Shown: piece by piece, positions 8,830 to 47,506 of the stretch
Position numbering within the stretch: the stretch's first letter is position 1
How the letters are laid out: each line of letters starts with the position of its first letter
From: a phage
Reading direction: 5' to 3' (one strand)
NCBI GenBank assembly: GCA_025284135.1
Contig: GCA_025284135.1_3646.1
DNA length: 64,000 nt
Notes under the pieces: generated by a model
Seen by the model: the letters and a program-made list of their open reading frames with translations, nothing else
What the model was told of the DNA's origin: nothing
Databases searched by the model: none
Translations under genes and position numbers: made by a program

Positions 8830-8858
8830 TTGCTTTTGATGTATCTTTGTGGTAAAAT
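8830..8858 (+). promoter_or_regulatory. sigma70-type promoter, extended -10 (TTGCTT-N17-TGgTAAAAT)
   Basis: Shares the GGTAAAATAC -10 motif with promoters at 12352, 26507, 32324. Confidence 0.4.
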
Positions 8859-8876
8859 ACATTAGTGAGGGATATA

Positions 8877-13211: not shown

Positions 13212-15548
13212 ATGGCTACAAACAAAATAGTTGCCACAACAGTCAACAAGATTGGCTTTGAGATAGAGAACTCCTCCTACAAAAAAGCTGTAGAGAAAAT
13301 TCGCAGTATTGGGAGGGAGTTCAGGAAACTGGGCGAGGATTTTAACTCAGCCAACCCCATGAGTAGATGGCAGGCAGTGGCGGTTAAAACTCAGCAGACA
13401 ATGCAACGTGTTGCCAGACAACAATCTCAAGCAAATGCTAAACTGCACAGGGAGAGCGTTGCTCAGGCCAAGAAAGAGGCTGCAGTAAAGGCTGCAATAG
13501 AGCGTAGGGAGAATGCAAGACGTAGGCAAGCTGTAGGCAATCTTACCGCCAAAAACCCAGAGATGGCTAGGATGCGTAAGTTCTACCAGCAGCAAGCTAA
13601 AGAGGCTAAAAAAGCTGCCAAATCTGCACCAGTATCCTATGGGGGTTATAAGGCACCTAAGGCAAGAGTTCTTGCTAACGCCAAGTCTTTCAGATATATT
13701 CCAGGCAACCCGAACATGGGTGGGGTGGCTTCAGATCCTAATCTTGTGAAAGCCCAGACCGCTGCCATGAATCGTTATCATAGACAGCTAAGAAGAGACA
13801 GTAAAGCTGGTATGGATAATAGGCTTATGTCGGATCGTGAGGCAAGGAGAACCCACCTCTACAACTCCGCGATAAGACTTTCTGCCAAGTATGGGGCCGG
13901 ATTCCGTGGAAGCTTGCCAGGATACTCAGAGTTAGAGTCTAGGTTTGCTCGCGGGGAGATGAAAAAGTCAACCTTTAACGCCCACCTGTCAGCTCTGCAG
14001 TCTGGATTTAAAAGCGCCACCAGCCAAACGCTTACACTAGGCGATGCCATGAGAGACTTACGTAGATCTGTTATTAATGCAACAGCTGCGTATACAGCTT
14101 TTTCTGGATTTGCTGCGGTTAACAGATCCGGTCACATGATGGAGGGGGCAAGTGCTGCTCTTACTGCTGTTACTGGAGATCCAAACAAAGCCAACAGTGA
14201 GGTTGCGTTTGTCCAGCAAGAGGCTATGCGTCTTGGTTTTGATCTCAAATCTGGTCTTCAAGGTTACGCCCAGATGTCGGTAAACGCCAAAAACCAGATG
14301 ACAAATCAGGAAGTGCATGAGCTGTTTTCTGCATACTCCCAGTATGCTGCTGCTTATGGTGCTGATGAGGTAAAATATCAGCGCGGTATCATGGCAATCC
14401 AGCAGATGCTTGGCAAGGGACAAGTAATGTCCGAGGAACTGAAGCAACAGCTTGCTGAAGCATTACCTGGTGCATACGAACCTTTTATCAAGGCCACCAA
14501 AGAGGCTTTTGGTCTTTCTGAACTCTCCATGGATCAGTTCATGGACATGATGAAGAAAGGTGAGGTTAAAACAGCCAAGATCATGAAGTATGTGGCTAAG
14601 TACATGAACGAGGCATCTGCAGCTGGTTATGAAAGAATGCAGAAGTCTAACGTGCTGGCAGAAAACAGACTGAAAACCTTCATCGAACTGACTCGTCAGA
14701 AACTGTTCACCCGTTGGTCTGACGAACTGACAGAGTTCTATTATACACTGATCCGCACTGGTGAGACTCTGCAATTTGTATGGGATGCCTCTGGTGATTT
14801 TGTTAGCGGGTTTGTGAGAGGCCTTAACTGGGTAGTTGGTGAACTAAACAACACCATAGTCAAGATCCGCATGTTTTTCCTTGAATGGGGGATTAAATGG
14901 GGATTCATAACAGCTAAGACGAAGGAATATTCTGAAGAGCTTCATGACACCTTTAGCTATGCTAAATGGGCAGGGTTTGCTGCTGCCATCATGCTGGTCG
15001 TCAACGCTCTAACAAAAGGTTTTGTCATGGCATCCATGCTTGTAAAAACCTTTAAATTCCTTAACTCTCTAAGAGGTGCAGCTGGAGCAGCAGGTGCCGC
15101 TACTGCAGAAGGATCTGGTGGTGGCGCTCCGGCAGGAAAAGGTGGGGGTGGCCTCAAGACACCTGGTGGCAAAGTTGGTCTGCTCGGTAAGCTGGGCATT
15201 ATCGGCACAATACTAAGCGCCGGGGAATTATTTAATGACCGTTACAACCCGCTAAGTGAAAGAAATCAGCAGCTGGATACTATCAGCGATATGATTCGCA
15301 AAGATATCATATCGGGAGGTAACGGGTTTGTTAATCCTTTGGACACCTTACCTGGTGGGACTCTTCCGTTGCCAGGTGGCCCTGGTTTTGCTTCTCAATT
15401 AAGAACTATGGAAATGCTACCTTTAGAGATCAGTGATGGGAAAATCACGATTTCAATAGATGAGGGCGAGTTTAACAAAATATTTGATGCAAAACTTGAG
15501 TGGGAGAACAATAAAGATATCAACTTCATGTCTACCGACCTTTGGTAA
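13212..15548 (+). CDS. tail tape measure protein
   Basis: 778 aa; Ala/Lys/Gln-rich helical N-terminal half, hydrophobic segment and Gly-rich stretch (GAAGAAGAATAEGSGGGAPAGKGGGG) near C-terminus; position after frameshifted chaperone. Confidence 0.8.
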   Translation: MATNKIVATTVNKIGFEIENSSYKKAVEKIRSIGREFRKLGEDFNSANPMSRWQAVAVKTQQTMQRVARQQSQANAKLHRESVAQAKKEAAVKAAIERRENARRRQAVGNLTAKNPEMARMRKFYQQQAKEAKKAAKSAPVSYGGYKAPKARVLANAKSFRYIPGNPNMGGVASDPNLVKAQTAAMNRYHRQLRRDSKAGMDNRLMSDREARRTHLYNSAIRLSAKYGAGFRGSLPGYSELESRFARGEMKKSTFNAHLSALQSGFKSATSQTLTLGDAMRDLRRSVINATAAYTAFSGFAAVNRSGHMMEGASAALTAVTGDPNKANSEVAFVQQEAMRLGFDLKSGLQGYAQMSVNAKNQMTNQEVHELFSAYSQYAAAYGADEVKYQRGIMAIQQMLGKGQVMSEELKQQLAEALPGAYEPFIKATKEAFGLSELSMDQFMDMMKKGEVKTAKIMKYVAKYMNEASAAGYERMQKSNVLAENRLKTFIELTRQKLFTRWSDELTEFYYTLIRTGETLQFVWDASGDFVSGFVRGLNWVVGELNNTIVKIRMFFLEWGIKWGFITAKTKEYSEELHDTFSYAKWAGFAAAIMLVVNALTKGFVMASMLVKTFKFLNSLRGAAGAAGAATAEGSGGGAPAGKGGGGLKTPGGKVGLLGKLGIIGTILSAGELFNDRYNPLSERNQQLDTISDMIRKDIISGGNGFVNPLDTLPGGTLPLPGGPGFASQLRTMEMLPLEISDGKITISIDEGEFNKIFDAKLEWENNKDINFMSTDLW

Positions 15549-15626: not shown

Positions 15627-16538
15627 ATGGTATCGGAGTGTCCTGGAGAGGTTATGCCAAGCAATATAGTTGATGAAAAAGACCTGTACAAGCCTCAAGA
15701 GGTTAAATCTCCAAAGGCTGAAAAGGCAGAGCAGCAAACTGAAAGCGATGTAAAGTACACTATGTTTGTCAGCGGTCTTAACTATGGTGGTCGCAATACG
15801 GAGATGAAGGGTAAAAACTTTACTAACGATCTTGCCATTATCTTCGACCAGGTTGAGAACTATTCTTTCAAACATTCTGTTGATAAGACTGATTTTGCAG
15901 TGGAAGATAAATCTACCCTGTCAGACCACGCTGTAATTAAAGATGGTGTATTTTCTTTTACTGGTAGGGTAAATACATCACCACATATAATCTATGAGCA
16001 AAACTACATTGACAGGAATACTGACTCTAAAAACCCTGCAGCATCTATGCGACCGGGCGCTGCACTGGAGGCTTTGACTGAAATCATTAATAAGCGCCAA
16101 TTGGTTTCTTTGGTTACCGAGGAAAGACTCCTTGAGAACTACATTATAACCAGCCTTTCTGCCAGCAAGTCTGTTGGCGAAGGTGCTGCAATGGTTTTTG
16201 ATGTAGAGCTTACAGAGTTCCGCACATTCTACTTGAACAAGGTTGTTAATGCAACTGTATACAGCAATCCTAAGAAAGTAGGCAAGACCCAACAAAAAGG
16301 TGCTGTCAACGACTGTAAGAATGGTAGTAACGTAGGTAACAAGAGGGACACAGGAGCATTCGCAGACACTGCATCCACAAACGCTGCAGAGGAGTGGCAG
16401 CCATACAAATCTATGATGTGGACAGATGAAAACGGTGTTACCCAATCGGCTGCGGATTGGTATTATCAGGAATATGGAAGACCTTCTACCATAGTCCCAT
16501 CTGAGCAGGGAAACTACAACAAAGTTAACGGGAAATAA
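15627..16538 (+). CDS. tail/baseplate-associated protein (hypothetical)
   Basis: 303 aa from track; alternative start at ATG 15654 with GGAGAGG SD; position after tape measure (as Mu gp43 / P2 gpU); no motif support. Confidence 0.3.
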   Translation: MVSECPGEVMPSNIVDEKDLYKPQEVKSPKAEKAEQQTESDVKYTMFVSGLNYGGRNTEMKGKNFTNDLAIIFDQVENYSFKHSVDKTDFAVEDKSTLSDHAVIKDGVFSFTGRVNTSPHIIYEQNYIDRNTDSKNPAASMRPGAALEALTEIINKRQLVSLVTEERLLENYIITSLSASKSVGEGAAMVFDVELTEFRTFYLNKVVNATVYSNPKKVGKTQQKGAVNDCKNGSNVGNKRDTGAFADTASTNAAEEWQPYKSMMWTDENGVTQSAADWYYQEYGRPSTIVPSEQGNYNKVNGK

Positions 16539-16550
16539 GGGGAGCGTATA

Positions 16551-16931
16551 ATGGAGCTTAAAGATTGGTGCATAATCACCTTTGTGTGGGACATTGACGG
16601 CTTTCCTGATCAAACCATGCGTGTTGTTTTAGACAACGAAACGTATGAAATGCGTATGCAATGGAATGAGAGGGATGAGTCTTGGTGGTTATCTCTTGGT
16701 CCAGTAGGTGACAGCCCTTTAGTAACCAGAAAAGTAACAGCTTGTCAAGATATCTTAGACGGACTGCATTATAGAGACGATTTACCGAAAGGTAGATTGA
16801 TGGCACTGTCGTTTAAAGATGATCAATATTGGGGCAGGGTTGGAAGATACAACCTTGGAGCAAGATCCGAGCTACAACTTGTATACGGCACCCCAGTTGA
16901 TCTTTACAAGGAACAGCAAGGGTTAGAATAA
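16551..16931 (+). CDS. hypothetical tail protein
   Basis: 126 aa; positional inference. Confidence 0.3.
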   Translation: MELKDWCIITFVWDIDGFPDQTMRVVLDNETYEMRMQWNERDESWWLSLGPVGDSPLVTRKVTACQDILDGLHYRDDLPKGRLMALSFKDDQYWGRVGRYNLGARSELQLVYGTPVDLYKEQQGLE

Positions 16932-17935
16932 TGGCAGAGTACAGACGTAGAACATGGCGATTATTGTTTGGTCGTCCTGTAGAACATGGCGGTAAATCAA
17001 AAACCAATATCCCAAAATCTGTTGAAAAGAAAGGGGAGAGTGATTCCGGAGTTTATGAAGTTAGCTCAGACACTGGTGCTGCCAATATAGAGTTTGACAT
17101 ACAAAAGGACAATACCAAAGAGCCAAACAAAGGTTATGTGACAGTTTACAACCTGTCCGACGATACAGTTAACTATCTGGATATGCATCAGGCTGATGCT
17201 CTTGCAGTTATGTTTGAAGCTGGCTATGATAATGAGAACCAGTTGATATTCTCCGGAACTGTGGAGTTTGTTGAAGACAGATGGGAAGGTCCTACCAGAA
17301 AAACTAAGTTCATCTTTGGGGATGGCACTGAGAACATCATTAAGTGCCAAAGCACAAGATCTTATCAGAAAGGCACACCTCTGAACTCTGTGCTTAATGA
17401 CTTACTGAAGGATATGAACTTGCCAAAAGGTAGGGTTGTTGGTTTTGGAAACCAGACTTTGCAATACTCTATGGCTTTCTCTGGAAACACTGCAGAGAAC
17501 CTCCGCAGGTTTGCAAGGCTGACCAACTCAACATTTAGCGTTCAGGATGGGGCTTTGTATTGGACCAAGGTTGGAAAAAGGTTCAAAGACTCTGTGTTTG
17601 AAATAAGCGCAGAGTCTGGGATGCACGGATCTCCTACCCCTAAAAACCCAGAACCTGCTAAAAAACGAAAAGCTAAAGCTGCTGCCAAAGGTGGTTCGAC
17701 ATCTAAAAAGAAAAAGAAAAACCCGAGAGAGGATGTTGGCCTTACTGTAACCACATGCCTTAACGGAGCTATCCTCCCAGAGTCCACTATTTATCTTAAA
17801 AGCAAGCAATATACAGGCTTCTATAAGGTGATCACGGTGCATCATAAGGGCACCATAGAAGGTGGTGATTACACTACAGAGCTTGGCCTTGGGGAAACAG
17901 TGGGTGGAGTTGTTGACAAAACTGAGGAGGTATAA
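16931..17935 (+). CDS. baseplate hub-like protein (putative, Mu gp44 / P2 gpD position)
   Basis: 334 aa; positional inference; contains a poly-lysine linker (KKRKAKAAAKGGSTSKKKKKNP) encoded by an A-rich tract near 17640-17720. Confidence 0.3.
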   Translation: MAEYRRRTWRLLFGRPVEHGGKSKTNIPKSVEKKGESDSGVYEVSSDTGAANIEFDIQKDNTKEPNKGYVTVYNLSDDTVNYLDMHQADALAVMFEAGYDNENQLIFSGTVEFVEDRWEGPTRKTKFIFGDGTENIIKCQSTRSYQKGTPLNSVLNDLLKDMNLPKGRVVGFGNQTLQYSMAFSGNTAENLRRFARLTNSTFSVQDGALYWTKVGKRFKDSVFEISAESGMHGSPTPKNPEPAKKRKAKAAAKGGSTSKKKKKNPREDVGLTVTTCLNGAILPESTIYLKSKQYTGFYKVITVHHKGTIEGGDYTTELGLGETVGGVVDKTEEV

Positions 17936-18612
17936 TGGCAATAAATAGGAAAGATGCTGCTGTAAGATCCTTCATAGAAAAAATAATGAGGGACTACCAC
18001 ACCAGTATCAGGGCCAGAGTTGTCAGTGTAGACTACAGTATCCCTTCTGCATCTGTGCAGCCAATAGCTGAAACCACGTTTGATGACGGAGATGTGGAGA
18101 GATACCCCCTTATCTATGACGTTCCAATTCAGGTGATGTCTGCAAACAGCGGAAAGGCAAGGTTAACACTTCCTATTAAGGCCGGAGATGTTGTAGGATT
18201 GCAGTTTTCAGAGAGGAATGAAAACAATAACGACGATCAACAAACTCACGGCCTGTTTCCAGGGTGGGCAATCACCTCCGTTCATTCAGACTCAAACGCT
18301 TTACAGATCGATCCTGATAACGTAGAGTTATGGAATGATAGGGTTTATTTTAAACTGACACCTTCTGGCGATTTTGAGCTTCAGACACCGGGTGGAACAT
18401 TACGGTGCGACAGCAGCGGGGAGTTTTCTTTCACTAACGGTGCTGCCAATTTGCGAGCTGCTGTGGATGGAAATATCAGAATGAATGGTGCCACAATAGA
18501 CCCATCTGGTAGAATTATAACTGCTGCTGGCGTGGATTTGGATTCATTCTATGCAGAATATAAAGGTCATACCCACTCTTGCCCTGATGGCGAGACAAGT
18601 GGACCGCACTAA
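17935..18612 (+). CDS. baseplate spike protein (P2 gpV / Mu gp45-like)
   Basis: 225 aa; C-terminal apex motif YKGHTHSCPDGETSGPH closely resembles the P2 gpV C-terminus (LHTHKHPGDSGGTTGSPL, metal-binding HxH). Confidence 0.6.
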   Translation: MAINRKDAAVRSFIEKIMRDYHTSIRARVVSVDYSIPSASVQPIAETTFDDGDVERYPLIYDVPIQVMSANSGKARLTLPIKAGDVVGLQFSERNENNNDDQQTHGLFPGWAITSVHSDSNALQIDPDNVELWNDRVYFKLTPSGDFELQTPGGTLRCDSSGEFSFTNGAANLRAAVDGNIRMNGATIDPSGRIITAAGVDLDSFYAEYKGHTHSCPDGETSGPH

Positions 18613-38654: not shown

Positions 38655-38683
38655 TTGCATTTTGTTCTCTAAAGTGTTAAAAT
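38655..38683 (+). promoter_or_regulatory. sigma70-type promoter, extended -10 (TTGCAT-N17-TGtTAAAAT)
   Basis: Hexamers with 17-nt spacer upstream of second fibre paralog. Confidence 0.5.
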
Positions 38684-40044: not shown

Positions 40045-41790
40045 ATGGCGCAAGACATGACAAGCTTTGAGCAGGCGGTAGATCAAGTAATTGTTGATTC
40101 TGAACGTTTGCACTTGGTTGTCAACGGTAACGCTGTGGATGAAGTTGTCGTAGAGGATGGGACCACCATCCCTACGGTACGAAAAGCCATGCTTGACAAC
40201 CTTTATTTTAAAACGCCACCGATCCCTTGGGCGTATGGTGCATCCACAACAGTTTTTAACCAGCTGTATGAGTTTAAAGGGGACACAGGCCCTCAATGGT
40301 GGTACGCTCCCGCAGCATCAAAATCTAACCCGGTTAGAATGCCAGCAGATCCTTCACAATCTCCAAACTGGAGATTATACACCGACTCTGCAGTAATGGC
40401 AAAATACTACGCAAAACTTAACAGCCCAAGGTTCGAAGGTGACCCGCGAGTACCTACACCTCCAATGGACGATAAGTCTGAGTCTATAGCAAACACAGAG
40501 TTTGTTGTTGACTATGTGGATAGCATATTTAAAGCCATGGAGGGGATGAAAGTTACTGTAGGGTCTTTGGTGGTAAAAGGTCTTACAGAACTAGCTAACA
40601 CCATAGTTGGGGGCACCCTTACCTTACATGGGCCTGTTAATGGAGCAGATTCTACTGCACGCTTCAGGAACCTAATCCTCACGGCAAATACTTCTACACT
40701 TACTTTTGCGTGGAGCGATCCTAAGCATGCAGACTGGAGAAGCACAGAGCTGCAACCTCATGAAGTGTCCACCCACAGGGTTATAGCTGACACTATAACC
40801 TCTGGGAAACCAGTGGCTAATAATAACGATGTACATTTTGATGGTCTGGGTAATAACTTTTTTGACTACGTGTACATTCGTGGTAATGCCATGAAGGCAG
40901 CAACCGAACCTACATTGCAGGTCGATGGGACCGCCAGGGTTAAGAACCTTGAGGTGACAGGCACCGTTACAGGGATAACCTACTCTGTCGATGGTACCAT
41001 GATCTACCCTAGCTATATTGAAAGCACGGGTGATGCATTGATAAATGGCGATTTAGAGGTTGGTGGGTCTGTAGTTATTCGAGGTACAGCCTCTATCCAA
41101 AACATAGCTCTGAACACTCTGAGAGTCAATGAGCGTGCAACTTTTGAAGGGGAAGGGCTTACAGCTAACAAAGGCATAATTACCGAGCTGACAACAACTA
41201 CTTTAACTGCAACAACTGCAAACTCTGAAAACTGCAACGTTACCAGAAACTTGCAGGTAAACGGCGATGTTAGCTTAAATGACAACGGCACAGGAACAAC
41301 ACGCCTTCATAACCTTGAAATATCCGGCACAGTGACTGGGTGGCTGCCAGACTTCTCTAATGTCAATTTTGTTTGTAATGGTATTAACTCCAGCGGTAAG
41401 ATAACCACCTCTCAAGGAATTGAGGCTGGTAAAACCATCACTGCCCCTACTTTCCACGCAGGAAAAGTAGACTTTGACTTAGAGGAGGTTGACGCATCTA
41501 GTGGGATATGGACACCTAACGGGCAGGCCAGTATGTATGTTGTCCACGCTAAAGGGGATTTTACAATAGGGCAGTGGCCTGGGACATCAGCGGAAGATAA
41601 ACCTTATCCATTCACTGCAGTTATCTATGTCATTCAGGATGCCGTAGGTCACAACGTGACTTTGCACGATAAGTATGCTATCCTGTCGGCAACACCTGTT
41701 ATTAACAACAAGGCTAACAGTGTTACCCTGCTGCAATTAACATATTGTGGTGTTGGTGATATCGTAGACGTGGTAATTGCACAACGTTAA
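40045..41790 (+). CDS. tail fibre protein
   Basis: 581 aa; conserved fibre collar-type motif NSPRFEGDPRVPTPPMDDKSESIANTEFVVDYV (cf. P2 gpH NSPALTGTPTTPTARQGTNNTQIASTAFV); repeated NL-x-V-x-G-x-VTG beta-helix-like segments. Confidence 0.6.
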   Translation: MAQDMTSFEQAVDQVIVDSERLHLVVNGNAVDEVVVEDGTTIPTVRKAMLDNLYFKTPPIPWAYGASTTVFNQLYEFKGDTGPQWWYAPAASKSNPVRMPADPSQSPNWRLYTDSAVMAKYYAKLNSPRFEGDPRVPTPPMDDKSESIANTEFVVDYVDSIFKAMEGMKVTVGSLVVKGLTELANTIVGGTLTLHGPVNGADSTARFRNLILTANTSTLTFAWSDPKHADWRSTELQPHEVSTHRVIADTITSGKPVANNNDVHFDGLGNNFFDYVYIRGNAMKAATEPTLQVDGTARVKNLEVTGTVTGITYSVDGTMIYPSYIESTGDALINGDLEVGGSVVIRGTASIQNIALNTLRVNERATFEGEGLTANKGIITELTTTTLTATTANSENCNVTRNLQVNGDVSLNDNGTGTTRLHNLEISGTVTGWLPDFSNVNFVCNGINSSGKITTSQGIEAGKTITAPTFHAGKVDFDLEEVDASSGIWTPNGQASMYVVHAKGDFTIGQWPGTSAEDKPYPFTAVIYVIQDAVGHNVTLHDKYAILSATPVINNKANSVTLLQLTYCGVGDIVDVVIAQR

Positions 41791-41798
41791 TATATCTA

Positions 41799-41825
41799 AC
41801 CGCTCCTGACGGGGCGGTTTTCTTA
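41799..41825 (+). terminator. intrinsic terminator/attenuator
   Basis: ACCGCTCC-TGAC-GGGGCGGT hairpin followed by TTTTCTT. Confidence 0.5.
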
Positions 41826-41838
41826 TCTGGAGAACACA

Positions 41839-44800
41839 ATGCTTCCAATCCCTTTGCTAAAACTTGGTCGTCATTTCCTCGATAAGAGGGGTGGAATTAA
41901 GGAACTTGCTGTTCTGTCATACCCAATAGACAACAGTGACGGTACAAGCACTACAGTATCCTATGTAAACAGCTTGGCTATACTTTTTGACGATGGTCAA
42001 CTTAATATTACGGGCTATAACAAGTTCGGGGAGTGTCGCACTGGGGATCGTAACCCTATAAACTACCCGAGCGAAACAGCATGGAATGTTGATCATGTGT
42101 GGAGAGCAGACCGTGCGTTTGTGATCCGAACTTTTGATAATCAGTTTTTCTACATCGGCTGCACTGCAGGGCTTATTGGATCTGATGCTGCAGGTGGTAA
42201 TGATGTTTGTGTAAGGGAGTGGACACCTCTTCCTGAACAGATTGTTAAAGGGTTGCACCTTGACACCCACCCGGAGCGCCTTGTTGAGGTGATGGGTGGT
42301 ATTAACAACACTGTCTGGGTTATTGCAGAGGCAGAAGGCACAGGCATACTGAATCTGTATGGGTCTGGTAACAACACCTACGGATCTTTGCATGTAGATA
42401 AAAATCAGCATGCAACCCCTGTAAAGATTGGTGAGACATCGGAAAATCCTGAAACAGGCCCTTGGAAAAACCCAAGCATTAACTGCGAGGTGCATGACAA
42501 CTCTGTTATTTTCGGTGGTCCTAGAGGTTTCTGGATTGCTGGATACGACTTTCTGAGAAATAACAGTAGAAACGACCTTGTTTGGCCTCCTGTGCAGATT
42601 ACTCGTAACGATTTGAGAGGCATTCCTGCAGATGAGGAGTGGAAAGGGTTTATGTGTGGTCCTAACGGGGCAATAATCGCCACACAGAGGATGCACACAC
42701 CCAATGACCAGCAGCTTGTTAACGTATTCTACGGGCAAGACGTCTGGGGAGATGACACATGGCGTTCCTTAAATATCACCTACACCCATGAGGTGATAAT
42801 GGCTCGTGGATACGGCACAAGTGGCATTTTCTTCAATAATGGCACTAAGCAGTATCGTGGATTCTCTCGCAACTTGTGCAATGATATTGGTGCACAATCT
42901 GCAAACAATAGCCCTAGGGCTAATTTTATCCACTATCGGGCTCTTGCTACAGCTAAATATGTTGAGCAACGCCTGCCAGTTAGCTGGACAGAGAGTGTTT
43001 ATTTCCAAGGCATTCACAGGGAAGGTTTCTTAGGAACCTTTACTGTTGTTAATGGCAAACTTTGGTGGTCAGGCATCCCAAGGGGAAGTTTTGCAGGCTC
43101 TAACAACCTGTTTGGCGGCAGACTTAATAGTCAGGGGTTCACAGAGGTTCCTGAGAATTGGTATAAAAATGTCCCGGTAGATAGTTGGGGTGTTGATGAT
43201 ATTTTCGACGTTAACGGTGTTAGCAGCGTTAGCAATATTTACATTGGTGACACGGTCAAGATGAAATTGAAGCCTCAGCCAGAGGGGGCTACGTTCATTA
43301 TTGACAAGATTGAACTGGTAAATGCTGCAGGCACGGTTGTTACAGATGCAAATTACCAATTCTCCACCAACTGGAACCACGGCGGGGCCAACGAAGTTGT
43401 TGTTACCCAGTATAACAGAAATGTTAACAGACGTGGCCTGTACTCTGTAAAAATAACCTATCATGACAAGCATGGCACAGGCAGAACTCACACAACAAGG
43501 ACTTTGAACTGGAACACCATAGTTCCTGCGTATCCGTCCAACGGCAAGTGGCATACTGTCGGTAGAAACAAACAGTTCCATGTCAACAACACTGTATACT
43601 TTGGACTGAATGGGGCTCAGCCTGTAGTAGAAGGTGATACAGCATACATGGTCAGACTACATAGAATGGATGCTGGATCAGCCACGTATGATGTTACCCA
43701 AGAGATTTATGATCAGCGACGAAATACTTACAACAACTTGGTGCAGACACAAGCTGTATGGGAGTTCAATCCTAACGGCAGAGGTGGTAAAATGTTACAG
43801 GTTAACGAGCAAAACGGAACATCGTTGACTGTCCACGAACACCCAGACCCTTGGCGTGATCCTGGAAAACCTAACCCAGGCGCTCGTACACTGAAAATTG
43901 TCAGCCATGATGTAGGATATTTCGGAATACGCTGGGAAGCTACAGTAAGATATGCCGACGGGACGACAAACAATATTGGGATCACCCTTGGTGGCACTAG
44001 TGAGGATAACTCACTGAAAATTGCCTATACACCTAGAGGAATCTCTATTGATAGTATGGATGTTGTTCGCAACGGTTACGGCGATGTGAATGTCAAAGTT
44101 ACTCTTGGCGAACATCTTGGTGGGGAAAGGATCATCATGTATGCCTTTGATCATGACCCTCGCACCAATGGAACCTATGCAGACCAAGCATGGAGTTACC
44201 TGATAAGCGCACCTGAGCCAAATACTAAAGAATTCTACTATGGTATGAAACGAGATGTGTGCAAGAAAACAGGAACACATGACTGGATTGCTATCTGCGT
44301 TAAAGATGAACGAACAGCTTGGGATGAGCCTGTTAACAGATGGTTCATAGGAATTCCTGCCCGAAGTGATAAATATGTTGAAGAATATATTGTGTGCATG
44401 GGAGGCACCAACCTGAACTTGTGTTGGAACGAGGATGCAAACAAATACTCTGATTATGACTATATGCGGGACTATTCTTGCAATCAGTGGTTTAACCAAC
44501 CCGGATATGCTGATCGACAGGCAAGGGTGAATCCTGCAATCTTTACAGATACACAGGTTTTCTTGACAAAACAGGCTAACGAGGTTCAGACCTTCAAGAA
44601 CAAATACGATCCTAACAAGTGGTTTTATAACTGTTATGGCGCATTTTTCTGGGGTCCTGGCGAACTACCTAATGGAGGATCTTGCTTCGAGGCTGCAACT
44701 TACGCCAGTGACAGGTTTATGGGGCAGGTTAAGAAGTACAAGATAATCCCCGGTCCTGAAACTCTGGGCAATGCCGTTGACCCTTATATCGTCATGACTG

Positions 44801-47463
44801 TGCTGAGATCAAACATGGATGGGACATCCATGTCTATGCAAGTTCCAGTAACAAACGGGTACAAACGTGTTGTGATGATCATTAAGTGCGACTTAATAGG
44901 TAAGCAAGTTCTTGCAGAAAACGGAACCTCAACACATTTATTCGAGACTGCTCTGCATTATCAGTTTGCTGATTCACCTTTTGCAGGGGATAAGAGAATA
45001 TCTGATACAGACAATGCTCGATGCAAGAAATTTATGCTTGGTGGTGGATGGTGGTGGTATGAATTTGATTTAACAGACAAATTCACTGACACGTCTAAAG
45101 TGGTGACAGGGCTTCGTCTAGATCTTGGCGAAAACATGCACAAAAGTGTTTGTGATGGCACCTACGGTGACCCAACAATCTACTTAAAGTATGTTTCTTT
45201 TGAGCACCCAGAGGATGTCGTTTATGGTCCAAAACTGAGACTGTTTGGCAATTGGATTGCTAAAGACAGGGCAGGTATGGGTAAAAAGGTAAGAGGGTTC
45301 TTAGTGGATGCAGGAACAGAAGACATGTTGGTTAATGCAGTGTGGCCTGAATTACCGGGAACTCAGTGGGACAACTCTGCTAAATCTATAAACTGGTTCA
45401 ACATTCACAGAGCTATGTGGACAACTAACTGCTACCTGTGGAAAGAGTTGAATGACGGCGCTTTCGGGTTTACAGGTGGCAGAAGAATGGCAATCATCTG
45501 CTGGACAACGCTGCAAAGATGTTATGACCATGACTACGAGATTGGAGGTAGGGCATGGAAAAATATTAGAGATAGAATCATAACTAACTTCGCAGACCCT
45601 AATGGTGGTGGAGCGTATGGCTTCGACTGCAGCAGGCTCATCCATTTGAACGGGTCCTCTGCATATAAGAAAGAGGGTTACTCTGGGTCCATGATTGAGT
45701 GGGGTCTGGTGAAAGATGCTCGCGTATTGATGGGTCAACAACTTGCTGCTGCAATAGGACCGAACGCAGTACAATCTGTTAAACCAGCGTGGTTCGATAT
45801 CCCATTATGGTCCTCTGGAACACCAGGAACTGCTGTGATCAACCCTACCACTGGGGATCTGGAAATCTCTTGGGAGGACTTGAAGCAGGTCGGTGGTTGG
45901 GACAAAACAGGGTATCAGGTTCAATGGTGGAGGGCTGATGGATCTTTAGCCGCTGATGAGTTTGTTAGGGACAATTTCTACACCATGTCCTCTGCAAAAG
46001 CACAACAACTGTTCGGTCAGGCTACCCCGTCAACGATCACCATGTCCATGTGCTGTAAAGACAACAGGACTGGAGCTTTGGGGCCAAGGGTTGCTAAAGT
46101 TTTCTCAGGTATCAAATGGAATCTTCCTGTTCAAAGTGTTGCATGGAAGCAAATAGGTGATAACAAGCTGCTGGTTACTCCTGCTTGTCAGTTCAACGCA
46201 ACTCTTAACGTTGATCCTGCTGTTGCGGCAAACTCAGCTAAAGCTTCTGACTTCTCTGTGTCTAACACTGCTATGGCAGATGTGAGGAAGATTGACACGC
46301 TGAACGCCAGAATTACCTGTAAAAACACTTATGGCACATTCCAGATCATCAACAACTTCACAGACGCGGACTCTAAGGTAGTGAGGACAGCAAGCCAGAC
46401 TCTGAGTTTAGGAACTCTGGCCTATGCGGCCCTGATCACTGAACAGTCAGCAACACTCCAAGGGGGTGGTGTAGGCAAGTCCATTACAACACCTGTGTGG
46501 AAGCCAAATGAGTGGGTTGTGTTTGATTTGACTGTAGACTTCTCCAGCGATAATAACTGGACATGGGTAAGGAATTGTTTGTCACAGTTGATGGGCGGTC
46601 CAAGCTCCATTAGCGATAGTCACGACTCTACTGACCCGAGTGTGTTCCAGGTAGGCAAAACTCACCCGGAGACTGGAGCAACGTTGCCTGACAGGAAGTA
46701 TGCTTTGGTTTGCATCTCTTACGGGAAGGCAGATGTCACCTTCTCAGGGACACACACTTATAACGGAACCTACAATTTCTCAAGGAAGTATAGTCTCAAA
46801 GCGGGAAACATTGTAGACGAGGTTGGTGTGCTGTATAATCCTGGCAACGGCATAGGGATTGTGGGTGGTAAACTGCAGATGCAGGAACCTTCTATTACCC
46901 CTTCCAATGTGTCTGGGATTAGAAAGACTTGGGAAAGCAGTAATACCAACATTGCAACAGTGGATGCTACCACAGGGCTGGTAACATTTAAAGCTACTGG
47001 GAATGTCACCATAAAGTTTGTAGTTACTGATGATGCAGGGCGCAAAACGTCTTCAACATCGTTTACTGTCAGACAGATGGCACCTCAGTGGTTTATTTGG
47101 GAAGGAAATCCTCTTGACGGGACTTACCCTAGACCTGCAGGAACGTCCAATATGAGGGTCTTTACCGGTCCGGTCATGGACAATCCGACCACAACCACCA
47201 ACCCTACATTTTTTGGTGCTTACATACCTGAAATTATTGGCCTACCAAGGAACCAGATACAACTGCTTTTCGGAGCAGGTGTTGATGGCCTAGCCACTTT
47301 TGGGTACAGTGACAACATCGATGCAGCCAGAAGCTCGGGTTGGATTGGATTTAAGTTCCAGTGGAACCCTGGTGGTAGAACATTAGGTCTTGCAAGCATA
47401 GGTGTTATGCTACCTGGTAACCAGCAATACCATCTCGAAGCTTATACAAACTTCCCTAGTTAA
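41839..47463 (+). CDS. giant structural protein (1874 aa) with RCC1-like repeats and C-terminal Ig-like (Big_2-like) domain; probable adhesin/fibre
   Basis: N-terminal repeated Gly-rich blades (ITGYNKFGECRTGD, LYGSGNNTYGSLHVD, FYGQDVWGDDTWR) resembling RCC1/beta-propeller repeats; C-terminal SNVSGIRKTWESSNTNIATVDATTGLVTFKATGNVTIKFVVTDDAGRKTSSTSFTV resembles bacterial Ig-like group 2 domains; last gene of the plus-strand structural block. Confidence 0.45.
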   Translation: MLPIPLLKLGRHFLDKRGGIKELAVLSYPIDNSDGTSTTVSYVNSLAILFDDGQLNITGYNKFGECRTGDRNPINYPSETAWNVDHVWRADRAFVIRTFDNQFFYIGCTAGLIGSDAAGGNDVCVREWTPLPEQIVKGLHLDTHPERLVEVMGGINNTVWVIAEAEGTGILNLYGSGNNTYGSLHVDKNQHATPVKIGETSENPETGPWKNPSINCEVHDNSVIFGGPRGFWIAGYDFLRNNSRNDLVWPPVQITRNDLRGIPADEEWKGFMCGPNGAIIATQRMHTPNDQQLVNVFYGQDVWGDDTWRSLNITYTHEVIMARGYGTSGIFFNNGTKQYRGFSRNLCNDIGAQSANNSPRANFIHYRALATAKYVEQRLPVSWTESVYFQGIHREGFLGTFTVVNGKLWWSGIPRGSFAGSNNLFGGRLNSQGFTEVPENWYKNVPVDSWGVDDIFDVNGVSSVSNIYIGDTVKMKLKPQPEGATFIIDKIELVNAAGTVVTDANYQFSTNWNHGGANEVVVTQYNRNVNRRGLYSVKITYHDKHGTGRTHTTRTLNWNTIVPAYPSNGKWHTVGRNKQFHVNNTVYFGLNGAQPVVEGDTAYMVRLHRMDAGSATYDVTQEIYDQRRNTYNNLVQTQAVWEFNPNGRGGKMLQVNEQNGTSLTVHEHPDPWRDPGKPNPGARTLKIVSHDVGYFGIRWEATVRYADGTTNNIGITLGGTSEDNSLKIAYTPRGISIDSMDVVRNGYGDVNVKVTLGEHLGGERIIMYAFDHDPRTNGTYADQAWSYLISAPEPNTKEFYYGMKRDVCKKTGTHDWIAICVKDERTAWDEPVNRWFIGIPARSDKYVEEYIVCMGGTNLNLCWNEDANKYSDYDYMRDYSCNQWFNQPGYADRQARVNPAIFTDTQVFLTKQANEVQTFKNKYDPNKWFYNCYGAFFWGPGELPNGGSCFEAATYASDRFMGQVKKYKIIPGPETLGNAVDPYIVMTVLRSNMDGTSMSMQVPVTNGYKRVVMIIKCDLIGKQVLAENGTSTHLFETALHYQFADSPFAGDKRISDTDNARCKKFMLGGGWWWYEFDLTDKFTDTSKVVTGLRLDLGENMHKSVCDGTYGDPTIYLKYVSFEHPEDVVYGPKLRLFGNWIAKDRAGMGKKVRGFLVDAGTEDMLVNAVWPELPGTQWDNSAKSINWFNIHRAMWTTNCYLWKELNDGAFGFTGGRRMAIICWTTLQRCYDHDYEIGGRAWKNIRDRIITNFADPNGGGAYGFDCSRLIHLNGSSAYKKEGYSGSMIEWGLVKDARVLMGQQLAAAIGPNAVQSVKPAWFDIPLWSSGTPGTAVINPTTGDLEISWEDLKQVGGWDKTGYQVQWWRADGSLAADEFVRDNFYTMSSAKAQQLFGQATPSTITMSMCCKDNRTGALGPRVAKVFSGIKWNLPVQSVAWKQIGDNKLLVTPACQFNATLNVDPAVAANSAKASDFSVSNTAMADVRKIDTLNARITCKNTYGTFQIINNFTDADSKVVRTASQTLSLGTLAYAALITEQSATLQGGGVGKSITTPVWKPNEWVVFDLTVDFSSDNNWTWVRNCLSQLMGGPSSISDSHDSTDPSVFQVGKTHPETGATLPDRKYALVCISYGKADVTFSGTHTYNGTYNFSRKYSLKAGNIVDEVGVLYNPGNGIGIVGGKLQMQEPSITPSNVSGIRKTWESSNTNIATVDATTGLVTFKATGNVTIKFVVTDDAGRKTSSTSFTVRQMAPQWFIWEGNPLDGTYPRPAGTSNMRVFTGPVMDNPTTTTNPTFFGAYIPEIIGLPRNQIQLLFGAGVDGLATFGYSDNIDAARSSGWIGFKFQWNPGGRTLGLASIGVMLPGNQQYHLEAYTNFPS

Positions 47464-47473
47464 CAGGAGGCAA

Positions 47474-47506
47474 ATAAAAAGGGGCCGTTTGGCCCCTTTC
47501 TTTTTA
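47474..47506. terminator. bidirectional intrinsic terminator between convergent transcription units
   Basis: GGGGCC-GTTT-GGCCCC hairpin flanked by A-run upstream and T-run downstream. Confidence 0.8.

Follow-up and report, generated by a model that had tools for sequence, protein, structure and literature searches.

We analyzed a 64,000 nucleotide (nt) stretch of phage DNA (GenBank assembly GCA_025284135.1, contig GCA_025284135.1_3646.1), referred to below as the window, which to judge from its sequence belongs to a Vequintavirus, i.e., an rV5-like Escherichia coli myophage, and in which a single giant gene encoding a 1874 amino acid (aa) protein closes the structural operon. An earlier note on this DNA had taken the product for a beta-propeller adhesin of a type unusual for a tail fiber. 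We identify the gene as the ortholog of rV5 gp27 and BASEL bas54_0041 in the family PHROG 15684, and the explanation which we favor, with middling confidence, is that it encodes a non-essential, low-abundance, glycan-binding accessory adhesin which is anchored by its propeller at the periphery of the Vequintavirus tail or baseplate. What speaks for an adhesin at the tail periphery is that the protein has a conserved N-terminal and a variable distal end, that its folds are of adhesin type, that its gene closes the fiber operon, that rough E. coli K-12 can be infected without it, and that selection acts on it in nature. According to this model the conserved N-terminal RCC1-like propeller would dock the protein on the virion, which is the role that the propeller module would also have in the shorter "tail proteins" composed of RCC1 and Big_2 that close the fiber operon in related genera. 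About ten beta-sandwiches of immunoglobulin (Ig), FN3, or carbohydrate-binding module (CBM) type would form a thin flexible arm of ~50-70 nm, and the CBM-like module, the Big_2 domain, and a swappable 124-aa C-terminal cassette would make weak, reversible contacts with a surface polysaccharide, either of particular natural hosts or of the mucosal environment. Adsorption would be raised where this glycan is present, with no contribution on rough E. coli K-12, and expression would probably be low, as the gene lacks its own late promoter and would need read-through of an upstream terminator. The gene family is already known and widely annotated, and its dispensability on K-12 has been published; the present analysis adds the contrast between natural knockouts and strong purifying selection, an expression that likely depends on read-through, the link to the RCC1 plus Big_2 tail proteins, an orphan central region with a CBM-like module, and a strictly dimorphic C-terminal cassette.

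In a published transposon screen bas54_0041 tolerated disruptive insertions and was dispensable on E. coli K-12, and it was dispensable also for the making of infective virions (HIDEN-SEQ preprint, 10.1101/2025.11.20.689424). The same preprint reports, as a statement at the level of the group, that some, and differing, genes for lateral tail fibers show conditional essentiality on clinical isolates. Natural disruptions of the gene were verified in three isolates, namely magaca (Tyr617, TAT to TAG), nomine (Trp82, TGG to TAG), and Bas50 (DrSchubert), in which a 1-nt frameshift near codon 1818 leads to a stop at codon 1819. Broken copies thus make up three of the ten full-length genes that were translated; all three come from isolates obtained on K-12, as do six of the seven intact copies. 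The three disruptions, taken with the split annotations listed below, suggest either frequent loss during isolation or propagation on K-12 or sequencing errors. An amber-suppressor tRNA was considered for the two independent TAG mutants, and the window, to which this search was confined, contains no tRNA genes. The gene is annotated in two to four pieces, going by the annotation alone, in ECP26, phita32, naswa, ime, Alma, V18, and APECc02. Between intact copies the ratio of non-synonymous to synonymous divergence (dN/dS) was 0.03-0.14 in every domain, and dS ranged from 0.07 to 1.7 between segments; the low dN/dS and the widely varying dS indicate strong purifying selection together with recombination, and this selection argues that the gene is still functional in nature. 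The earlier note had named absence from the virion and dispensability without a phenotype as evidence against its proposal; the dispensability of the ortholog on K-12 and the marginal virion proteomics described below go part of the way in that direction, but the purifying selection argues for a function.

The giant protein is aligned over aa 1-1873 with positions 1-1877 of the 1878 positions of the phrog_15684 profile (E = 0, 4370 bits), and orthology with bas54_0041 was confirmed from the MaxBurger record. The protein of rV5, gp27, has 1878 aa and 208,334 Da, and it shares with the window protein the full-length match, the operon position, and the flanking terminators. Database searches matched the giant gene to 122 phage records, 108 of which cover at least 80% of it, and more than 100 sequenced phages carry the family. 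Among 5.8 billion protein clusters there were only 15 relatives, all of 1711-1976 aa and on contigs of up to 142 kb, with identities of 96%, 76%, and 40-58% to the cluster representatives. Positions 1-25000 of the window are 98.6% identical to phage BP9, and known phages match the structural region outside the giant gene at 97-98.6% identity. For the giant gene itself the highest nucleotide identity over the full length is 93.3%, with ~93% to Bas59, and the protein is 96% identical to the cluster representative P0001, which at 1878 aa has the length of rV5 gp27, while its identity to individual relatives is patchy. That the locus is more diverged than the neighboring structural genes, together with this patchy identity, points to the window copy being a new mosaic allele composed of an rV5-like body and a type A C-terminal cassette, the cassette of rV5 itself being of type B. 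Two groups of deposited sequences deserve a comment. About 15 GenBank records MG0656xx named "Campylobacter phage" (host C. jejuni) carry the giant gene, their aa identity with E. coli Vequintaviruses reaching 98.7%, and look like mislabelled or contaminating coliphages, and near-identical fragments or copies of the protein (P0018, P0002) deposited under Eggerthella lenta and Escherichia coli assemblies are probably phage contamination.

The open reading frame (ORF) is, as the earlier note had it, the largest of the window, the runners-up having 1381 and 1270 aa; it occupies ~4% of the genome and its product has a computed mass of 208.2 kDa and a pI of 6.4. It is the final member of a run of fiber and baseplate genes, after which the coding strand switches, the next gene being on the minus strand, and the cumulative GC skew of the window has its turning point exactly at the end of the giant gene, so that the gene closes the rightward structural block and the position assigned to it in the earlier note holds. 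The same position is found in relatives whose giant protein is only 40-53% identical, where the neighborhood is perfectly syntenic in the order deacetylase fiber, short fiber, chaperone, short fiber, phiTE_241-type fiber, giant gene, and strand switch, and the operon end is also the place of an 888-aa homolog in Phapecoctavirus ZCKP1. The hairpins which had been noticed on either side of the gene are both present and both match terminators of rV5 published as predicted rho-independent (Table S4, PMC3606486). The upstream hairpin, AACCGCTCC-TGAC-GGGGCGGTT followed by TTCTTAT, sits between the stop of a 581-aa gene (41790) and the giant-gene start codon and is identical to rV5 t028, and the downstream element, AAAGGGGCC-GTTT-GGCCCCTTT, is equivalent to t027/t026. 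This second hairpin is plausibly bidirectional, since it is bordered by an A-run and, at its opposite edge, by a T-run and lies between convergent genes. The core of the rV5 late promoter, TGGTAAAATA, has 18 matches in the window where 5.9 are expected; exact copies at 8850, 12372, 26527, and 32344 occupy the intergenic gaps before the ORFs starting at 8865, 12424, 26567, and 32386, and copies with one mismatch are found at 2648 and 38675. None lies before the giant gene, the nearest being that at 38675, beyond which there is only an intragenic site with one mismatch. With no late promoter of its own, transcription of the giant gene must read through the hairpin at 41798, and attenuated expression is likely.

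The N-terminal ~445 aa are probably, on moderate evidence from homology and modelling, an RCC1-like propeller. The segment aa 1-450 is the most conserved of the gp27 family, and the combination of a conserved N-terminus shared across genera with variable distal parts is the usual polarity of fiber-type proteins. The RCC1-like repeats of the earlier note are upheld indirectly, by homology to proteins that pass the RCC1 threshold and by a partial model: in the window copy itself neither Pfam RCC1 (PF00415) nor RLD (PF25390) gave a match, even at E<=10, and among 16 family members WD40_RLD matched weakly in 12 (aa ~52-202; 17-18 bits vs. a cutoff of 150) and RCC1 weakly in four. The relevant homologs are the RCC1 plus Big_2 tail proteins of Phapecoctavirus and Seunavirus (phrog_11922), such as ZCKP1 gp122 (888 aa) and a protein of Salmonella phage KE23 (595 aa). 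Over aa 1-198 the giant protein shows 40% identity to ZCKP1 gp122 (BLASTP E 7e-29), and hhalign against the ZCKP1 gp122 family gave 99.8% probability over these same residues, with a second, collinear match at aa 392-444, so that the domain limits agree. ZCKP1 gp122 and the 565-610-aa tail proteins of Seunavirus exceed the Pfam RCC1 cutoff of 21.7 bits (23.0, 28.5, and 31.5 bits) and carry Big_2 downstream of the module, and in ZCKP1, the only member whose locus was examined, the gene is the last of the tail-fiber operon. Tail proteins of RCC1-like plus Big_2 type are a recurrent family in related genera, and the architecture is therefore not unique to the giant. The giant differs from these proteins of 565-890 aa by ~1200 extra residues between propeller and Big_2, including the orphan central region, and by a copy of the module which falls below the Pfam RCC1 threshold.

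For the modelling the protein was divided into aa 1-845 and 841-1874, and both segments were run in AlphaFold2 with a 16-sequence family alignment, giving mean predicted local distance difference test (pLDDT) values of 52.7 and 54.0; the stretches aa 219-445, 566-603, 639-698, 841-936, and 1125-1331 are not usable. These segments, longer than those suggested in the earlier note, yielded partial RCC1-like matches and models of the Ig-type domains. Within the N-terminal region the model is usable only for aa ~20-235, pLDDT being below 50 for aa 219-445, and this part matches Kti13, RCC2, and the RLDs of HERC proteins over a superposed length of only ~120-170 residues. A motif resembling G-x-N-x-x-G-x-L, a likeness to RCC1, RCC2, Kti13/Ats1, and the HERC1/HERC2 RLDs, recurs in the giant, e.g., at aa 59, 169, and 420; in contrast to those domains seven blades and closure of the ring are only putative, and there is no reason to expect guanine nucleotide exchange or chromatin functions. 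Self-comparison of aa 1-460 by hhalign gave one weak off-diagonal repeat (E 0.62) in a shallow alignment (number of effective sequences, Neff, 1.35), and BLAST within the window detected neither internal repeats nor paralogs of the giant protein. A homology search with aa 1-460 brought up near-identical fragments only. Of the Gly-rich repeated blades described in the earlier note there remains a weak enrichment, with 10.9% Gly in aa 1-450 vs. 9.9% in the whole protein. A precedent for a propeller in a host-recognition protein is given by the staphylococcal phage receptor-binding proteins phi11 Gp45 and P68 RBP, a likeness in description. The propeller of these proteins forms the receptor-binding platform at the distal end of a trimer, whereas in the giant it is N-terminal and the most conserved part and therefore more likely an anchor. 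RCC1-like proteins occur elsewhere in large phages: in the Vequintavirinae, phage W70 has genuine virion components of 40-43 kDa that consist of an RCC1 domain standing alone (phrog_4219), and the jumbo phage phAPEC6 encodes eleven RCC1-like proteins; a role in DNA condensation has been speculated for such proteins (PMC11370258, PMC7247149).

Beyond the propeller the protein is predicted to be a string of discrete beta-sandwiches (Table 1). Of those at aa 446-842 the stretches aa 446-565 and 731-842 were modelled at pLDDT 70-85 and the middle sandwich poorly. The central region contains a putative beta jelly roll of CBM/lectin-like type at ~aa 940-1125 (pLDDT 60-86), which may bind sugar, followed by a part at ~aa 1125-1312 that is unmodelled and predicted to be helical; a phmmer search with aa 843-1312 against 1.84 billion representatives found no homolog outside the gp27 family. 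The most variable internal stretch between lineages is aa 1450-1550. Near the C-terminus the Big_2-like segment proposed in the earlier note is borne out by Pfam, with 33.5 bits against a cutoff of 22.8, a pLDDT of 78-92, and intimin as best PDB sequence match; when the family alignment was used as a profile against PDB sequences, only noise at the level of Ig domains came back. The C-terminal cassette occurs in two forms without intermediates, 38 of 114 phage records being at least 95% identical to the window copy (type A) and 76, including rV5, being 60-62% identical (type B), with about 61% identity between the two types; among the matching records none came from outside Vequintavirus. These features make the label of an adhesin atypical for a tail fiber a reasonable one, as the string of beta-sandwiches was found to have neither a coiled coil nor a triple beta-helix, and neither a chaperone domain at the C-terminus nor a chaperone gene next to it. 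A trimeric lateral tail fiber of canonical type, representing one of the three fiber sets of Vequintavirinae with the cassette as its receptor-binding tip, is nonetheless how the ortholog has been annotated: the BASEL records (bas54_0041, bas59_0040) label it "lateral tail fiber protein with intimin domain," the BASEL paper describes gp27 as the last of the large genes for lateral tail fibers, among the three largest fiber genes and with moderate allelic variation, and both the place in the fiber operon and the dimorphic C-terminus would fit. We regard such a trimer as quite unlikely, given that no trimerization element (coiled coil, beta-helix, collagen-like domain, or intramolecular chaperone) was found by Pfam, PHROG, and PDB profile searches, that the predicted secondary structure shows neither coiled coil nor triple beta-helix, that no chaperone gene follows the giant gene, and that the gene is dispensable for infective virions. 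Phage phi92, in which three fiber sets were visualized, has no ortholog, and of the three fibers seen in the structures of Bas54 and Bas49 discussed below none is attributed to the giant protein.

Evidence from virions comes from rV5, where mass spectrometry assigned three peptides to gp27 (9 of 3279 spectra, 3.1% coverage), all of which occur verbatim in the window protein. The small number of spectra would be in keeping with low expression. Several observations weigh against a peripheral tail adhesin. The rV5 gp27 peptides rank poorly and have semi- or non-tryptic ends, and rIIA was "detected" at the same level; the text of the rV5 paper leaves gp27 off the detected tail proteins; and cryo-electron microscopy (cryo-EM) of Bas54 and Bas49 shows density for three fibers near the baseplate as against nine annotated fiber proteins, none of it assigned to a gp27-family protein. 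The location in the virion, the end that docks, and the glycan ligand are all putative. The papers on phiTE, CB7, CM1, and W70 hold no data on the giant protein. The cryo-EM of phi92, the phage that serves as structural model of the group, was considered as a guide to its location and was dropped because phi92 lacks the gene, keeping only the 203-aa Ig remnant gp152. This gp152 (16320-16928 of the phi92 stretch examined; "lambda V-like fold") shares 62% identity with ZCKP1 gp122 over residues 411-587 of the latter and is what is left, with Ig alone, of an RCC1 plus Big_2 tail protein after loss of the propeller; gp153 (17095-17982) follows it without a ribosome-binding site.

The Ig-like part of the protein raises the alternative of a decoration of capsid, tail tube, or sheath comparable to Hoc or the C-domain of lambda gpV, whose Ig-like domains would not recognize the host but keep the virion attached to mucus or to surfaces other than the host. 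The giant shares with Ig-like domains known from phage surfaces and related systems (T4 Hoc, lambda gpV C-domain, N4 gp65, and the Big_2 of intimin/invasin) the Big_2 sequence and fold, an accessory and dispensable character, and a proposed weak binding of carbohydrate, and it differs in being far larger, presumably propeller-anchored, and equipped with a CBM-like jelly roll and an orphan region. The concept of weak carbohydrate binding by phage Ig-like domains reportedly comes from Fraser et al. in 2006. A decoration would be in keeping with the match of aa 1590-1759 to phrog_215 (a family in the head and packaging category, labelled "structural protein with Ig domain"; E 2e-30), with a weak profile match to a phage decoration protein, with dispensability in vitro under purifying selection, and with the gut and sewage from which these phages come. 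We rate it improbable to much the same degree as the trimeric fiber, however, as the gene lies in the tail-fiber module, over 34 kb away from the genes of the capsid, where a Hoc-like protein would be expected in the head module and with a C-terminal domain that binds the capsid, the N-terminal module is common to proteins annotated as tail proteins (phrog_11922), the phrog_215 match is limited to the generic Ig region, and a dimorphic cassette fits a specific ligand better than generic stickiness. A capsid or tail decoration and a host-range determinant, both put forward in the earlier note, are still candidate functions.

A protein that is not part of the virion at all, expressed late and acting inside the cell or after lysis, or ejected as an effector, would account for the marginal proteomics, for the terminator which separates the giant gene from the fiber genes, and for the dispensability for infective virions, and there are RCC1-like virion proteins of other phages without a known role. 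We consider this very improbable, since the protein consists almost wholly of beta-sandwich and CBM-like folds of extracellular type, no signal peptide or enzymatic domain was detected in it, and its N-terminal module belongs to annotated tail proteins of several genera. Ejected phage proteins, moreover, are normally encoded in head or core modules, and the injected effector offered as one possibility in the earlier note is without support. A more specific form of the tail-periphery adhesin, which is unlikely, would be a new type of host-recognition appendage, a non-trimeric, single-chain "whisker" of ~60 nm (an oligomeric state that we infer) which is plugged into the baseplate periphery through the RCC1-like propeller, carries a lectin-like module, an orphan W/C-rich domain, and a dimorphic tip, and determines host range, in a conditionally essential way, on particular clinical E. 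coli that are smooth or encapsulated. If true, a first concrete role would thereby be given to the RCC1-like proteins which recur in the virions of large phages.

Table 1. Coordinates of the giant gene, its flanking signals, and the domains of its product in the window
Feature	Position	Strand	Basis or remark
Giant ORF, ATG to TAA	41839..47463	+	1874 aa plus stop, uninterrupted; ortholog of rV5 gp27 / bas54_0041 / PHROG 15684
Shine-Dalgarno-like GGAGAA	41829..41834	+	5 nt 5' of ATG; read directly from sequence
Terminator-like hairpin	41798..41819	+	9-bp stem, 6 GC pairs, loop TGAC, then TTCTTAT
Bidirectional terminator-like hairpin	47478..47499	.	GGGGCC-GTTT-GGCCCC, A-run before, T-run after
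aa 1-445, probable RCC1-like beta-propeller	41839..43173	+	homology to RCC1-passing tail proteins; partial model
aa 446-842, about three Ig/FN3-like beta-sandwiches (predicted)	43174..44364	+	model; weak Bact_surface_Ig-like matches in 12/16 homologs
aa 843-1312, central region, Trp/Cys-rich, family-specific	44365..45774	+	composition, model, phmmer
aa 1313-1660, FN3-like domain (~aa 1335-1430) then further Ig-like sandwiches (predicted)	45775..46818	+	model, alignments
aa 1681-1732, Big_2 (PF02368; intimin/invasin-type bacterial Ig-like)	46879..47034	+	Pfam
aa 1751-1874, C-terminal dimorphic cassette (124 aa), window type A	47089..47460	+	record comparison

Two neighbors of the giant gene warrant attention. 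The 581-aa gene directly upstream (40045-41790) matches phrog_4549, the family of the abundant 112-kDa virion fiber W70_107 in Septuagintavirus, and has an ortholog in related contigs with the Pfam domains Phage_phiTE_241_N/C; its product is a possible docking partner of the giant protein. In a 140-kb Vequintavirus-like contig a 369-aa gene (14189-15298, minus strand) with a Pfam match to YadA_anchor, the anchor of trimeric autotransporters, lies among the small early genes a short way downstream of the giant gene and represents unusual cargo for a lytic phage.

Phages of the Vequintavirinae have a broad host range and are employed in cocktails for therapy and biocontrol, and the roles of their nine annotated fiber proteins are an open question. 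The RCC1-like assignment, if it holds, connects the giant protein to virion proteins of RCC1-like type which are unexplained in other large phages, and the natural amber mutants together with the two C-terminal alleles are ready-made reagents for tests of function. The gene, being kept by strong purifying selection while its loss on laboratory K-12 comes at no cost, plausibly exemplifies a function to which standard laboratory hosts are blind. A practical consequence for phage production is that growth on K-12 may, unnoticed, favor phages knocked out in a gene which could be of importance on clinical strains.

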